NCBI GenBank assembly: GCA_963711565.1
Contig: CAVQEQ010000004.1
Span: 1,248,001 to 1,312,000, forward strand
DNA length: 64,000 bases
Origin: an uncultured delta proteobacterium
GTDB taxonomy: Bacteria > Desulfobacterota > Binatia > Binatales > Binataceae
Reading direction: 5' to 3'
Part shown: piece after piece, positions 31,602 through 35,601 of the stretch
Position numbering within the stretch: position 1 is the stretch's first letter
Layout of the letters: each line of letters opens with the position of its first letter
Notes under the pieces: generated by a model
Databases searched by the model: none
Seen by the model: the letters and a program-made list of their open reading frames with translations, nothing else
Told to the model about the DNA's origin: nothing
Made by a program: the position numbers and the translations under genes

Positions 31602-32816
31602 CTACCCCTTCGGCAGCTTGAGGACTCGTTCGCCGATGATATTGTGCTGAATTTCGCTCGAGCCCGCCGCGATCGTCAGTCCGCGCGCCGCGAGCGTGCG
31701 ATGCATCCAGCGGCCGCCTTCGACTGCGCCCGCGCTGCCGCCTTCGACGTTGGCGAACGAACCGAGCATCTCGTCGGCGAACATCGCAACTCGCAGGTTG
31801 AGCTCGGTGGCGAACAGCTTGCCGAATGAACTTTCAGCGCCCGGCACTTTGCCTCTGAGCTGCGCCGACAGCGAGCGATAGCGCGACAAGCGCAGGCATC
31901 GCGCCTCGACTGCGAACTGCGCGAGCTTCTGCCGCACGTACGGATGCTTCCACGCGGGCCCGCCCTGGAAATCGACTTTCTTCGCGAGGTCCAGCAACTC
32001 GCCGATCGTGCGTTCCACCGGATGCCGCGTGCCGCCCGAGACGCGCTCGTACATCAGCGTCGCGATCGACACCTGCCATCCCGCGTTCAGATCGCCGACG
32101 AGGTTTTCTTTCGGCACGCGCACGTTGTCGTAGAAGACCTCGTTGAATCCGGCGTCGCCGGTGATCTGAACGAGAGGCCGCACCGTAATTCCGGGGCTAT
32201 GCATATCGACGAGCAGGTACGAGATTCCCTTGTGCTTCGGCGCCGCGGGATCGGTGCGCACCAGCAGCACCTGCCAGTCCGCGCGATGCGCCAAACTGGT
32301 CCACACTTTCTGCCCGTTGATCACGAAGGTGTCGCCGTCGAGTACGGCGCGCGTCTGCAGGCCCGCGAGGTCGGAGCCCGCGCCGGGTTCGGAGTAACCC
32401 TGGCACCAGATTTCCTCACCGGTCAGCATCTTGAGCAGGTAGCGCCTTTTCTGCTGCTCGGTGCCGAGATGCATGATCGTCGGCCCGATTCGATCGATCG
32501 CGAGCTGGTTGGCGCCGTAGAGCGGCAGTCCGAGACGCAGCACTTCGTCCTGGTAGATAGACTGATCGATCATGTTCGCGCCGCCGCCGCCCCATTCCTT
32601 GGGCCAGTGCAGCGCAACGTAGCCGGCCTTGTAGAGCCGGCGATGGTAGTCGAGCAGTTGCGCCCAGCGGCCGTCGTCGCGCACGTCGAGCAGGCTCGCA
32701 GTCGAGCCGCCGAGACCCTCGCCCTTGCTCCCGAAAGCTGCGGCGGAGTTCTTCTGGAGCCATCCCGCAATCTCAGCGCGAAATTTTTCCTGTTCCGGCG
32801 TGTAGGTAAAATCCAT
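31602..32816 (-). CDS. Acyl-CoA dehydrogenase family protein
   Basis: WCQGYSEPGAGSDLA, NGQKVWTS, FNEVFYDNVRVP, GSSEIQ motifs. Confidence 0.93.
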   Translation of the reverse strand: MDFTYTPEQEKFRAEIAGWLQKNSAAAFGSKGEGLGGSTASLLDVRDDGRWAQLLDYHRRLYKAGYVALHWPKEWGGGGANMIDQSIYQDEVLRLGLPLYGANQLAIDRIGPTIMHLGTEQQKRRYLLKMLTGEEIWCQGYSEPGAGSDLAGLQTRAVLDGDTFVINGQKVWTSLAHRADWQVLLVRTDPAAPKHKGISYLLVDMHSPGITVRPLVQITGDAGFNEVFYDNVRVPKENLVGDLNAGWQVSIATLMYERVSGGTRHPVERTIGELLDLAKKVDFQGGPAWKHPYVRQKLAQFAVEARCLRLSRYRSLSAQLRGKVPGAESSFGKLFATELNLRVAMFADEMLGSFANVEGGSAGAVEGGRWMHRTLAARGLTIAAGSSEIQHNIIGERVLKLPKG

Positions 32817-32896
32817 CGGCTGCTCCGCGTGATTGCTCGCCGCGAGTATAGCGCGGTCGAAGCACAGGCGTTAACGGCGGAGCGAAGGTTGATCGT

Positions 32897-32919
32897 GAGA
32901 TATATCCGTGGTAGATACC
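32897..32919 (+). promoter_or_regulatory. Putative vapBC operator (GATATATC-CGTG-GTAGATAC)
   Basis: Two imperfect palindromic boxes just upstream of the antitoxin start; inference. Confidence 0.35.
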
Positions 32920-32923
32920 AATC

Positions 32924-33157
32924 ATGAAACGTGAGATCGCCAAAGTCTTTAAGACGGGCCGGAGCCAGGCGGTTCGGATTCCTAAGCGATTCAGGTTCGC
33001 CACAGACGAGGTTCTGATCGAGCGTGACGGGGAAAAGGTGATTCTCACACCCCGTCCTCGCTCATGGAAGGAATACTTCGCGACCGCGCCGCGGTTGCCC
33101 GCTGACTTCCCCAGACGTATCCGCGATCGCCGTCCCGAGAAAGTTGAGCCGCTCTAA
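32924..33157 (+). CDS. vapB: VapB antitoxin (AbrB/MazE-type)
   Basis: AKVFKTGRSQAVRIPKRFRF swapped-hairpin motif; adjacent PIN toxin. Confidence 0.92.
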   Translation: MKREIAKVFKTGRSQAVRIPKRFRFATDEVLIERDGEKVILTPRPRSWKEYFATAPRLPADFPRRIRDRRPEKVEPL

Positions 33158-33556
33158 TTGCCGCGAGTGATGCTCGACAGCGATGTGTGTATCGACGTGA
33201 TGCGCGGCCGGTCGCCTTCGATACGCGCGCGCCTCGAACGCATGAGTCCTGAAGAAGTTGCGGTTTCCTCCGTTGTCGCAGGCGAATTGTGGACCGGCGT
33301 GTCGAAATCAACGCAACCCGAGCGCTCGAGAAGTGCGATCAACGCATTTTTAGCGTATGTCTCAGTTCTCGATTGGCCAGCCGAGTTAGCCCCAAGCTAC
33401 GGTGAGCTCAGAGCGCAACTGGAGAGTTCCGGTCGGTCTATCGGTGCAATGGATCTGTTGATCGCCGCGCACGCGATCCACGAAAAGGCGATCTTCGTTA
33501 CGCGCAATCTGTCCGAATTCCGTCGAATCAGTAATCTAAAGATAGAGAGCTGGTGA
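33158..33556 (+). CDS. vapC: VapC toxin (PIN-domain RNase)
   Basis: MLDSD, GEL, IGAMDLLIAAHA, VTRN-EF motifs. Confidence 0.93.
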   Translation: MPRVMLDSDVCIDVMRGRSPSIRARLERMSPEEVAVSSVVAGELWTGVSKSTQPERSRSAINAFLAYVSVLDWPAELAPSYGELRAQLESSGRSIGAMDLLIAAHAIHEKAIFVTRNLSEFRRISNLKIESW

Positions 33557-33568
33557 TGCCATTCCTCA

Positions 33569-33600
33569 ATACTGGCATCACGAATCCTCTGGTATAGATT
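33569..33600 (+). promoter_or_regulatory. Direct repeat copy 1 containing a sigma70-like promoter (CTGGCA-N17-TAGATT)
   Basis: ATACTGGCATCACGAATCCT (33569..33588) is identical to 34262..34281. Confidence 0.7.
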
Positions 33601-33603
33601 GCT

Positions 33604-33625
33604 TGTAGTCACAATCTGAACTACA
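33604..33625 (+). promoter_or_regulatory. Putative antitoxin operator TGTAGT-N10-ACTACA
   Basis: Inverted repeat between the -10 box and the toxin start. Confidence 0.5.
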
Positions 33626-33634
33626 GTAGCTGCG

Positions 33635-33934
33635 TTGCCTAAGCGCGCCATCAAGCTTGGCCACGATGCGGTTCGTCAGTTTGCGGCGCTCAGTGCCGCC
33701 GAACGCTCGCGGCTGGCGGCGGCCATGCAGGCCGCGCTCGGCGAAGATGACGCCAACATTGAAAACAAGAACCGCTTTCGCTTGCGGCGGCCGTCTGGGC
33801 AGTTCGAATTTGAGTTCCGCGACGGCAACTTGCGTGTCTTCTATCGCGTCGGAGATCGGGAGGTGCTGGTTGATGCCATCGGACGTAAGCGGGGCAATCA
33901 GCTTTTCATCGGCGGCAGAAGGGTGACCCTATGA
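33635..33934 (+). CDS. RelE/ParE family toxin
   Basis: 99 aa basic protein, FEFRDGNLRVFYRV and AIGRK pattern; ATGA overlap with the antitoxin. Confidence 0.8.
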   Translation: MPKRAIKLGHDAVRQFAALSAAERSRLAAAMQAALGEDDANIENKNRFRLRRPSGQFEFEFRDGNLRVFYRVGDREVLVDAIGRKRGNQLFIGGRRVTL

Positions 33935-34251
33935 AGATTGAGAACATTCGCGAGGTCAAAACGCGGTTCAGCCGCTACGTCAAGGAGCTGCCCAAAAGCG
34001 GCTCGGTCCTGATCACGAAGAACGGGCGACCGTGCGCGGCGCTGGTGCCTGTTACCGAAGACACCGATCTTGAAGCGCTCGCGCTCTCTCAGAACAAGAG
34101 CTTCTGGAAGATAATCGACGACGCGATCGAGCGTGGGAGAAAAAAGGGCTTCGTCAGTTTAGCAAGTCTCCTGGACGCCGCGCCGCGACTGCCCGCCGAT
34201 TTTCCTAAACGGATTCGAGATCGAAGGCCTGAAAGAGTGAAGCCGCTCTGA
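33931..34251 (+). CDS. Phd/YefM family antitoxin with VapB-like C-terminal tail
   Basis: NIREVKTRFSRYV-VLITKNGRPCAALVP Phd motif; last 23 aa match the VapB tail. Confidence 0.88.
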   Translation: MKIENIREVKTRFSRYVKELPKSGSVLITKNGRPCAALVPVTEDTDLEALALSQNKSFWKIIDDAIERGRKKGFVSLASLLDAAPRLPADFPKRIRDRRPERVKPL

Positions 34252-34261
34252 CCGCGCGCCG

Positions 34262-34293
34262 ATACTGGCATCACGAATCCTTTGCTATATGAT
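34262..34293 (+). promoter_or_regulatory. Direct repeat copy 2, putative icd promoter (CTGGCA-N17-TATGAT)
   Basis: 17-bp spacing; 60 nt upstream of the icd ATG. Confidence 0.7.
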
Positions 34294-34353
34294 GTCGAGA
34301 TACTGCGCGCGCGGGCGCGCCATCATTAACACACGAGGCAAATTGCGACTCCG

Positions 34354-35601
34354 ATGGCATACGAGCACATCAAGGTTCCCAGCAACGGCGAGAAGATCAC
34401 TCTTGGCGCCAATCACACTCTGAAAGTTCCCGACCGCCCGATCATTCCGTTTATCGAAGGCGACGGCACCGGACCCGACATCTGGCGCGCGTCACAGTAC
34501 GTCTTCGACAATGCGGTCAAGAAAATTTACGGCGGCAAGCGCCAGATCGCCTGGATGGAAGTATTCGCGGGCGAGAAACCGTTCAACCAGTGGAAGAATT
34601 GGCTGCCCGACGAAACCGTCGAGGCGTTCCGCGAATTCCTCGTCGGCATCAAGGGGCCGCTGACGACGCCGATCGGCGGCGGCATCCGATCGCTCAACGT
34701 AGCGCTGCGCCAGATGCTCGATCTCTACGTATGCCTGCGGCCGGTGCGCTACTTCGCGGGCGTGCCGAGTCCGGTCAAGCATCCGGAGAAACTCGACGTC
34801 GTGATCTTCCGCGAGAACACCGAAGACATCTATGCGGGAATCGAATGGCCGGCGGAGTCGCCCGAGGCAAAGAAGCTGATCAAGTTCTTGCAAGACGAAA
34901 TGGGCGTCCAGAAAATCCGCTTTCCCAACACGTCGGGAATCGGTATCAAGCCGGTTTCGCGTGAAGGCAGCGAACGGCTCATCCGCGCCGCGCTCGACTA
35001 TGCGATTAAGCACAAGCGCAAGAGCGTGACCTTCGTGCACAAGGGCAATATCATGAAGTTCACCGAGGGCGCGTTCCGCGATTGGGGCTACGAACTCGTC
35101 CGCCGCGAGTACAAGGGCAAGGCCGTTGGATGGGACGATTGCAACGGCAAGCCGCCCGCCGGCGAGCTGCTGGTCAAGGATGCGATCGCGGATATCACTC
35201 TGCAGCAGGTGCTGACGCGGCCCGACGAATTCGACGTCGTCGCCACGATGAATCTCAACGGCGACTACATCTCGGACGCGCTGGCGGCGCAGGTCGGCGG
35301 CATCGGAATCGCTCCTGGAGCCAACATCAACTACCTTACAGGTCACGCGATCTTCGAGGCGACGCATGGCACCGCGCCCAAGTACGCCAACCAGGACAAG
35401 GTGAATCCGGGCTCGGTCATTTTGTCGGGCGTGCTGATGTTCGAGCACATGGGATGGCAGGAAGTTGCCGACGGCATTATCCGCGGCCTCGAAAAGACGA
35501 TCGGCAAGAAAGAAGTGACTTACGACTTCGAGCGGCTGATGACAGGGGCGAAGCTGCTGAAGTGCTCGGAGTTCGGCAAAGCGATCGTCGACAATATCTG
35601 A
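34354..35601 (+). CDS. icd: Isocitrate dehydrogenase (E. coli-type dimeric)
   Basis: [57 protein letters not shown] motifs. Confidence 0.97.

Follow-up and report, generated by a model that had tools for sequence, protein, structure and literature searches.

A VapB-type tail on a Phd antitoxin, a recurrent and selected feature of a variable toxin-antitoxin slot

In the 64,000-nucleotide stretch of DNA analysed here (the window), a Phd/YefM antitoxin ends with a copy of the C-terminal coil of VapB, an antitoxin of another family encoded upstream of it. The comparisons presented below show this tail to be real, recurrent and under selection, a variant of the orphan-antitoxin theme; the bispecificity of Phd is plausible. 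The explanation that we favour, and to which we give an even chance, is that the tail is the coil of a VapB from the same family as the neighbouring one, a relic of an allele deleted for vapC, fused in frame to phd and kept as an immunity against VapC. Its function would likely be an immunity to the vapBC allele of the acd-icd slot rather than a wiring to this particular neighbour. This explanation is supported by the location of the tails beside acd in all of the 23 genomes (out of 47) that carry one, by the presence of the cognate VapC only at this slot and by the low omega of the orphan tails. The absence of the Trp48 helix from the graft, an omega higher in orphan than in intact alleles, the behaviour of one junction type (102 aa), the existence of broken alleles and the absence of the toxin from viral contigs count against it. 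The same slot harbours truncated VapBs (mini-VapBs), which probably still neutralise VapC and for which the case is stronger than for the Phd graft.

Table 1. Genes and elements of the tandem array and of its flanks (positions in the window).
Feature	Position	Strand	Remarks
acd, acyl-CoA dehydrogenase	31602..32816	-	borders the variable slot on the left; Pfam Acyl-CoA_dh N/M/C exceed their cut-off
vapB, AbrB/MazE-type antitoxin, 77 aa	32924..33157	+	PF04014, 42.1 bits (cut-off 24.7)
Trp48 helix of VapB	~33059-33085	+	within vapB
VapB C-terminal coil (tail), residues 55-77	33086..33154	+	spans the part aligned to R. felis VapB2 residues 59-78, second toxin-binding site
vapC, PIN-domain toxin, 132 aa	33158..33556	+	PF01850, 61.6 bits (cut-off 23.6)
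28-bp icd promoter-like repeat, copy 1	33569..33596	+	joint of vapBC allele and relE-phd cassette; 93% identity to copy 2
RelE/ParE-like toxin gene, 99 aa	33635..33934	+	PF05016, E 0.005, 17.7 bits, under the cut-off of 23; lies ahead of phd in most related loci
Phd/YefM antitoxin core, residues 1-80	33931..34170	+	PF02604, 38.7 bits (cut-off 29.8); homologues mostly end here (80-81 aa)
Fusion junction, four codons replacing the stop and 3' flank of untailed phd	34171..34182	+	basis: untailed phd genes of the genus (L197, L202, L070)
VapB tail grafted onto Phd (residues 84-106), with the stop	34180..34251	+	20 of 23 residues as in the VapB tail
Repeat copy 2, sigma70-like site upstream of icd	34262..34293	+	
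icd, isocitrate dehydrogenase	34354..35601	+	right flank of the slot; PF00180, E 4.5e-90

The first pair of the array belongs to the VapBC class, an AbrB/MazE-domain vapB lying directly upstream of a PIN toxin gene with both profiles above their cut-offs (Table 1). Residues D7, E43 and D99 of VapC are invariant in the 9 aligned VapCs of the genus, and the cut-offs of the Leptospira-type tRNA(fMet) VapBC equivalogs are not reached (132.1 for 140 with NF047863, 77 for 100 with NF047862). Phd, encoded with its tail by positions 33931-34251, also exceeds the TIGR01552 cut-off (25.7 for 20.8), and the RelE/ParE-like protein has no PDB match at E values up to 1. A 28-bp direct repeat at 33569 and 34262, overlooked by the sequence-only reading, overlaps a promoter-like site upstream of icd, and its motif is also found before icd in relatives; this repeat marks the array as two alleles in tandem. 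Copy 1 continues into the leader of the relE cassette (33569-33634), so that a hybrid promoter may serve relE-phd. An assembly artefact was ruled out as the origin of the array by a short-read contig from run X5, which covers 32600-34700 unbroken at a depth of 170 with 35 differing letters; a contig from run X1, which may be the source sample, covers 33273-34634. The RNA run X19 yielded nothing over the phd region, a blank that has no bearing on expression. Many of the 35 differences of the conspecific X5 contig lie in the 5' half of vapC (33210-33328) and only 2 in 33880-34360, a clustering which suggests recombination inside vapC.

Over their final 23 residues, VapB and Phd agree at 20 positions, and different codons are used at 14 of these; a recount returned these same figures, initially given by the sequence-only reading. 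At the DNA level, 51 of the 69 positions are identical, that is 20, 21 and 10 of 23 at the three codon positions. The poor agreement at third positions excludes a recent DNA duplication as the source of the Phd tail, as that reading had concluded. The absence of a second vapC after phd, also mentioned there, is confirmed. Other proteins of the genome ending in this motif, for which the same reading suggested a search, did not turn up: tblastn places the tail at the vapB and phd sites only and, among 42,565 stop-to-stop frames of at least 60 aa from the whole genome, the runner-up C-terminal match to the VapB tail reaches 9 of 23. The tail is rich in Arg and Lys in this genus and acidic in most family-level VapBs, and only Asp61, Pro63 and Asp68 are invariant among 19 family-level VapB tails.

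Searching the 47 genomes of the genus with the VapB C-domain gave matches in 23 of them, at 24 places, every one beside acd. The slot itself was inspected in 30 loci and 10 regions, short of all 47 genomes, and the tallies include two unpublished genomes (G018 and G023), with neither tail nor cognate VapC, which weigh on the denominator alone. The slot holds vapBC in 11 genomes (split over two contigs in one of them), a mini-VapB in nine and Phd+tail in three, one of these being broken; an empty acd-icd gap or tail-less stubs (G008 and G005) are seen in other genomes. Broken alleles are also found in G025 and in G019, where vapB is present and most of vapC is deleted. Mini-VapBs consist of the start of VapB fused in frame to its C-domain, without the AbrB DNA-binding domain and without vapC. 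Seven of them are 49 aa long, another extends this form by a 17-aa read-through and one has 57 aa; eight share one 29-codon deletion length. These ORFs of 49-66 aa (L011, L012, L013, L015, L016, L033, L034, L036 and L037) have their own upstream motif and start, and the one compared with Pfam matched no family. Phd+tail is carried by this genome, by G021 (relE-phd+tail without vapBC) and by G025 (frameshifted), and in the metagenome locus L041 (2917-3451), phd+tail is the sole occupant of the acd-icd interval, from which both relE and vapC are absent. Only this genome among the 47 associates vapBC with Phd+tail; it has the cognate vapC, so its Phd+tail is not toxin-less in a genome-wide sense.

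A VapC with at least 65% identity is encoded by 11 of the 47 genomes, always at the acd-icd slot. In the 12 genomes (75-97% complete) with a tail and without intact vapC, among them the 9 mini-VapB genomes, G021 and G025, no full-length VapC above 35% identity to that of the window was found. A separate and widespread VapC (33-35% identity) is paired with a Phd-type antitoxin (L167-L169, from G001, G033 and G021). It was rejected as the target of the tail, its own Phd-type antitoxin being encoded upstream in the three genomes examined and the toxin being present with and without the tail. PIN genes occur in all 47 genomes, which makes another target within the genome possible.

Various rearrangements were observed at the slot. 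On the acd side of L027 and L032 (G002 and G061), an intact vapBC comes after a short remnant of another vapB start, and about 700 extra bases separate the two in G061. The slot of G063 contains a mini-VapB and then relE. In G025 (L008), the start of a mini-VapB, the last helix of Phd and the tail form a hybrid whose frameshift is possibly a homopolymer sequencing error. Most of the icd tree lacks resolution (8 of its 33 forks are starred) and the slot states are interspersed on it, a pattern that would fit an exchange of alleles as well as their differential loss from tandem arrays. On the tail tree, intact alleles are intermingled with orphan ones, and the alleles have a mosaic look.

The tail is not restricted to this genome. 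At least 17 tail-bearing Phd clusters are found among the 120 listed of 435 homologues, most of the others stopping at 80 aa, and roughly a dozen additional clusters of mini-VapBs exist. When 1.84 billion representatives were searched with a profile containing one row from the unpublished G188, 30 hits were obtained, three of which (P0195, P0208 and P0218) are repetitive and were dropped as chance matches. P0210 is a 65-aa in-frame hybrid made of a mini-VapB start, the last Phd helix and the tail, without the Phd DNA-binding domain. P0197, P0199, P0200 and P0202, known as protein records without genomic context, are short AbrB-less proteins of related VapB subfamilies. Outside the genus, the 24 family-level loci inspected are mostly ordinary vapBC pairs, a few of them broken. 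G071, from another genus, has at a different site, between two unrelated genes, a 47-aa ORF corresponding to the VapB C-domain only (L144:1474-1617, minus strand). Relatives of the cognate VapC were not found in a collection of viral contigs, and the best match among plasmids has 43% identity; both collections hold little from this lineage. Without a viral or plasmid source for VapC, the threat is visible only as a chromosomal allele.

Concerning the origin of the fusion, tail DNA is absent after phd in 79 of 80 metagenome loci (76 with at least 100 nt downstream) and in 11 of the 13 genus loci examined. A GC-rich run resembling the vapB Ala-Pro-Arg codons directly follows the phd stop in 23 of 69 untailed loci. 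In untailed phd genes of the genus (L197, L202 and L070), the stop is followed by three codons of similar GC-rich sequence, in the same register as the junction. A 9-base GC-rich motif of the junction kind is common, with 871 copies in the genome. Phd+tail junctions have three in-frame lengths. In the 106-aa type (this genome and P0001), four codons take the place of the stop and three codons of the untailed genes; in the 104-aa type, the old stop survives in G021, out of frame by one base; the 102-aa type is a direct join. These lengths would be compatible with crossovers at GC-rich microhomology combined with stop loss. In the small sample of four DNA loci where phd lies beside tail DNA, all four are in frame at the junction and none keeps a stop ahead of the tail. 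A contig from X8 ending with the stop kept was rejected as an unfused intermediate, its end matching the ordinary flank of untailed phd elsewhere. Orphan alleles end alike, with a few bases resembling the vapC start and then the sequence that follows the vapC stop in intact alleles, which points to a vapC deletion. The favoured explanation would thus run as follows: a vapB allele loses vapC and leaves an orphan tail; a relE-phd cassette recombines there at GC-rich microhomology between its own 3' flank and the vapB Ala-Pro-Arg codons; the phd stop is lost by more than one route; and the tail peptide would then confer immunity whenever a vapBC allele comes into the slot, is lost from it or shares it, sharing being the case of this genome. 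In that event, Phd would combine the anti-RelE region of its own with a second module, an incomplete and probably weaker coil against VapC that is devoid of the Trp anchor.

Selection was estimated with GY models in IQ-TREE, by region, with a likelihood ratio test (LRT) against omega 1; samples are small (21-32 codons, 4-13 sequences). The C-domain of the mini-VapBs has an omega of 0.14 (8 sequences and 32 codons, G011 left out; LRT 53.7) and their linker one of 0.81 (10 codons; LRT 0.2), which may be inflated by a mixture of two junction registers. Omega is 0.10 for the Phd tails (4 sequences; LRT 24.8) and 0.125 for all 13 orphan tails (LRT 66.7), while intact alleles give 0.055 for the tail (10 sequences, without G024 and G019) and 0.035 for the C-domain (11 sequences); orphan values are thus 2-4 times those of intact VapBs. 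Among four minis that share a linker type and lack vapC, pN/pS is 0.14. Glu75 is present in 10 of 10 intact and in none of 13 orphan alleles of the genomes, and is kept in four mini proteins. The correlations of a per-position table of the tails were set aside, as it filed two Phd+tail proteins with the minis and left 58 rows, mostly untailed Phd, unanchored. Codon 75 likely doubles as the vapC ribosome-binding site, and the loss of Glu75 from the orphans indicates that the constraint linked to vapC lapsed while the remaining tail stays conserved. An antisense ORF was rejected as the selected product: all 13 orphan tails leave one reverse frame open but the tail codons cannot yield a stop there, and the spacer to its start varies (12, 19 or 20 nt), which changes the frame from one allele to another.

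Phd cores and tails were also compared within each junction type, which presumes their joint descent whereas the alleles look mosaic; moreover, tail differences between types may predate the fusions. Between the window and P0001, both of the 106-aa type, 0 of 21 tail positions and 7 of 79 core positions (9%) differ (neutral simulation, P ~1e-4), and over five sequences of this type divergence is 0.056 in the core and 0.019 in the tail. The 104-aa type (11 sequences) gives 0.106 for the core and 0.172 for the tail, for a neutral expectation of about 0.5-0.6. In the 102-aa type (14 sequences), the values are 0.040 and 0.150; the tail evolves about 4 times faster, against a rough neutral value of 0.28 with a wide spread. 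After fusion, the tail is therefore clearly constrained in the 106-aa type and more loosely so in the 104-aa type, while for the 102-aa type constraint is unproven.

The best PDB match for both VapB and VapC is Rickettsia felis VapBC2 (3ZVK; VapB2 chain 3zvk_E, E 5e-13), and the second one for VapC is Shigella flexneri VapBC (3TND). In R. felis VapB2, the Trp46 helix is described as playing "a dominant role" in the first binding site and the coil (residues 59-78) as blocking both active sites of the toxin dimer (PMC3326315, seen in part); Shigella VapB acts in a similar manner, according to the available part of PMC3384007. The Phd graft corresponds to the coil (site 2) only and lacks the Trp48 helix (site 1), the counterpart of Trp46, so that Phd does not carry a complete second-toxin binding module, while mini-VapBs retain the helix and the coil, hence both sites. 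The canonical active-site Arg located at Phe+4 is replaced by Ile or Leu in the Phd tail, as it is in intact VapBs. Phd is dimeric. This dimerisation could offset a weaker binding of VapC by the graft. The AlphaFold model of Phd+tail has a mean pLDDT of 48.7 and is unusable. Taken with the preceding results, the absence of the Trp anchor helix weakens the proposal of the sequence-only reading that Phd is wired to the neighbouring VapC: G021 and L041 carry the tail without vapBC at the site, and no VapC exceeds 33% identity in G021, which is 95% complete. The uniqueness of the tail to this genome, which would have counted against that reading, is contradicted by the 17 tail-bearing clusters, and the tail is under purifying selection by omega and by the core-tail comparison. 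The in-frame fusion of a vapB relic, cited there as an alternative, is the origin supported by the data.

The tail could also be a functionless relic, whose conservation would date from the intact vapB, recent and repeated vapC losses and recombination having scattered it and the fusions being tolerated by-products of a hotspot. We regard this as unlikely, although it deserves serious attention: omega is raised in orphan tails, the 102-aa type is close to neutral, four genomes have decayed alleles, intact and orphan alleles are mixed on the tail tree, protein searches can detect fused forms only, and chromosomal TA systems commonly erode and lose their toxins, as far as the available part of PMC13617665 goes. 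However, the eight minis with a single deletion length have a linker that drifted to neutrality and a C-domain that did not, Glu75 was relaxed, the 106-aa tail is unchanged across a 9% core divergence, and the phd-stop-tail arrangement, sought in four loci, is absent.

It is improbable that the tail serves Phd itself, as a degron, a stabiliser or an extra basic contact with DNA or RelE, VapC binding being lost and only the mini-VapBs being antitoxins. The lack of the Trp anchor, the basic character of the tail and its retention in G021 and L041, with no vapC at the slot, would fit such a role. Yet an untailed Phd is the norm in both the metagenome and genus loci, L041 keeps the tail without relE, and P0210 has it on a hybrid of mini-VapB and Phd without the Phd DNA-binding domain. 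Quite improbable as well is a local cross-wiring, the central proposal of the sequence-only reading, in which selection in tandem arrays would have favoured a Phd+tail coupling two neighbouring systems, toxin-less carriers deriving from them by differential loss. Tandems do recur, in this genome and in G063, and the hybrids P0210 and G025 imply an earlier tandem of a mini and relE-phd+tail; two more vapB arrays are suggested by P0006/P0133 and P0007/P0164, whose longest contigs are equal in size (31197 and 4575), an indication drawn from equal sizes only. But vapC and an orphan tail are found together in only one of 47 genomes, and purifying selection persists among related species that all lack vapC. 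Immunity to the vapBC allele of the slot is the preferred reading.

A wider reading, which we hold only tentatively and consider rather doubtful as a whole, would make the acd-icd slot the site of a conflict between toxin and antidote alleles, with the tail restored more than once by fusion to Phd into a two-headed antitoxin. An addictive vapBC allele would be opposed to antidote-only alleles reduced to the neutralising peptide; a second TA cassette would sever this peptide from its start codon and selection would restore it through the Phd fusion, producing a natural antitoxin against both the RelE-type toxin and VapC. If this were true, neutralising peptides would pass between antitoxin families as modules, one antitoxin would have two specificities and an active-site coil would function without the Trp anchor. 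Even if Phd+tail is inactive, mini-VapBs would constitute an overlooked class of orphans. The debate on orphan antitoxins, seen either as debris or as a means of immunity, is not closed according to the available part of PMC7354431, and this slot provides a natural series (full VapB, 49-aa mini, 65-aa hybrid, Phd+tail of three lengths and untailed Phd) in which the sequences testify to selection and include a neutral internal control.

In the literature searched, which leaves out most subscription papers and supplements, neither a natural Phd-VapB chimera nor a selected mini-VapB was found, and the term "chimeric antitoxin" is absent from the 20 papers listed of 93; PMC7472061, seen in part, cites a title on a minimal VapB4 binding module. 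The strings "orphan", "chimer" and "microhomolog" are absent from the main text of PMC13617665, as available.

The VapBCs of R. felis (3ZVK; PMC3326315) and S. flexneri (3TND; PMC3384007), as described in the parts available, resemble the present one by their AbrB-type VapB, Trp helix, C-terminal coil and PIN toxin. Here, in contrast, the coil is also encountered detached from the AbrB domain and vapC, and on a Phd without the Trp helix, the Arg at Phe+4 not being kept. The chromosomal CcdA of E. chrysanthemi, an antitoxin without its own toxin, was proposed to neutralise an incoming homologue, although a common anti-addiction use of orphan antitoxins is still to be demonstrated (PMC7354431, available part). 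The idea of an antitoxin retained without its own toxin is the same (PMC7354431). Unlike CcdA-type orphans, what is kept here is the neutralising domain only, or this domain grafted onto another antitoxin family; purifying selection was measured, and the cognate toxin is found only as a rival allele in the same chromosomal slot. In Photorhabdus, TA modules lie in small high-turnover spots, with toxin loss and TA-only islets, and eroded systems are read as relaxed selection (PMC13617665, available part). The acd-icd slot is comparable to these hotspots in clustering, turnover and toxin loss (PMC13617665), except that here the leftover piece stays constrained. Panacea-domain antitoxins form one domain family that neutralises different toxins. 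In the same way, phage Dmd acts against both RnlA and LsoA (PMC7354431, available part). Compared with Dmd and Panacea, two modules from unrelated antitoxin families would here share one chain.
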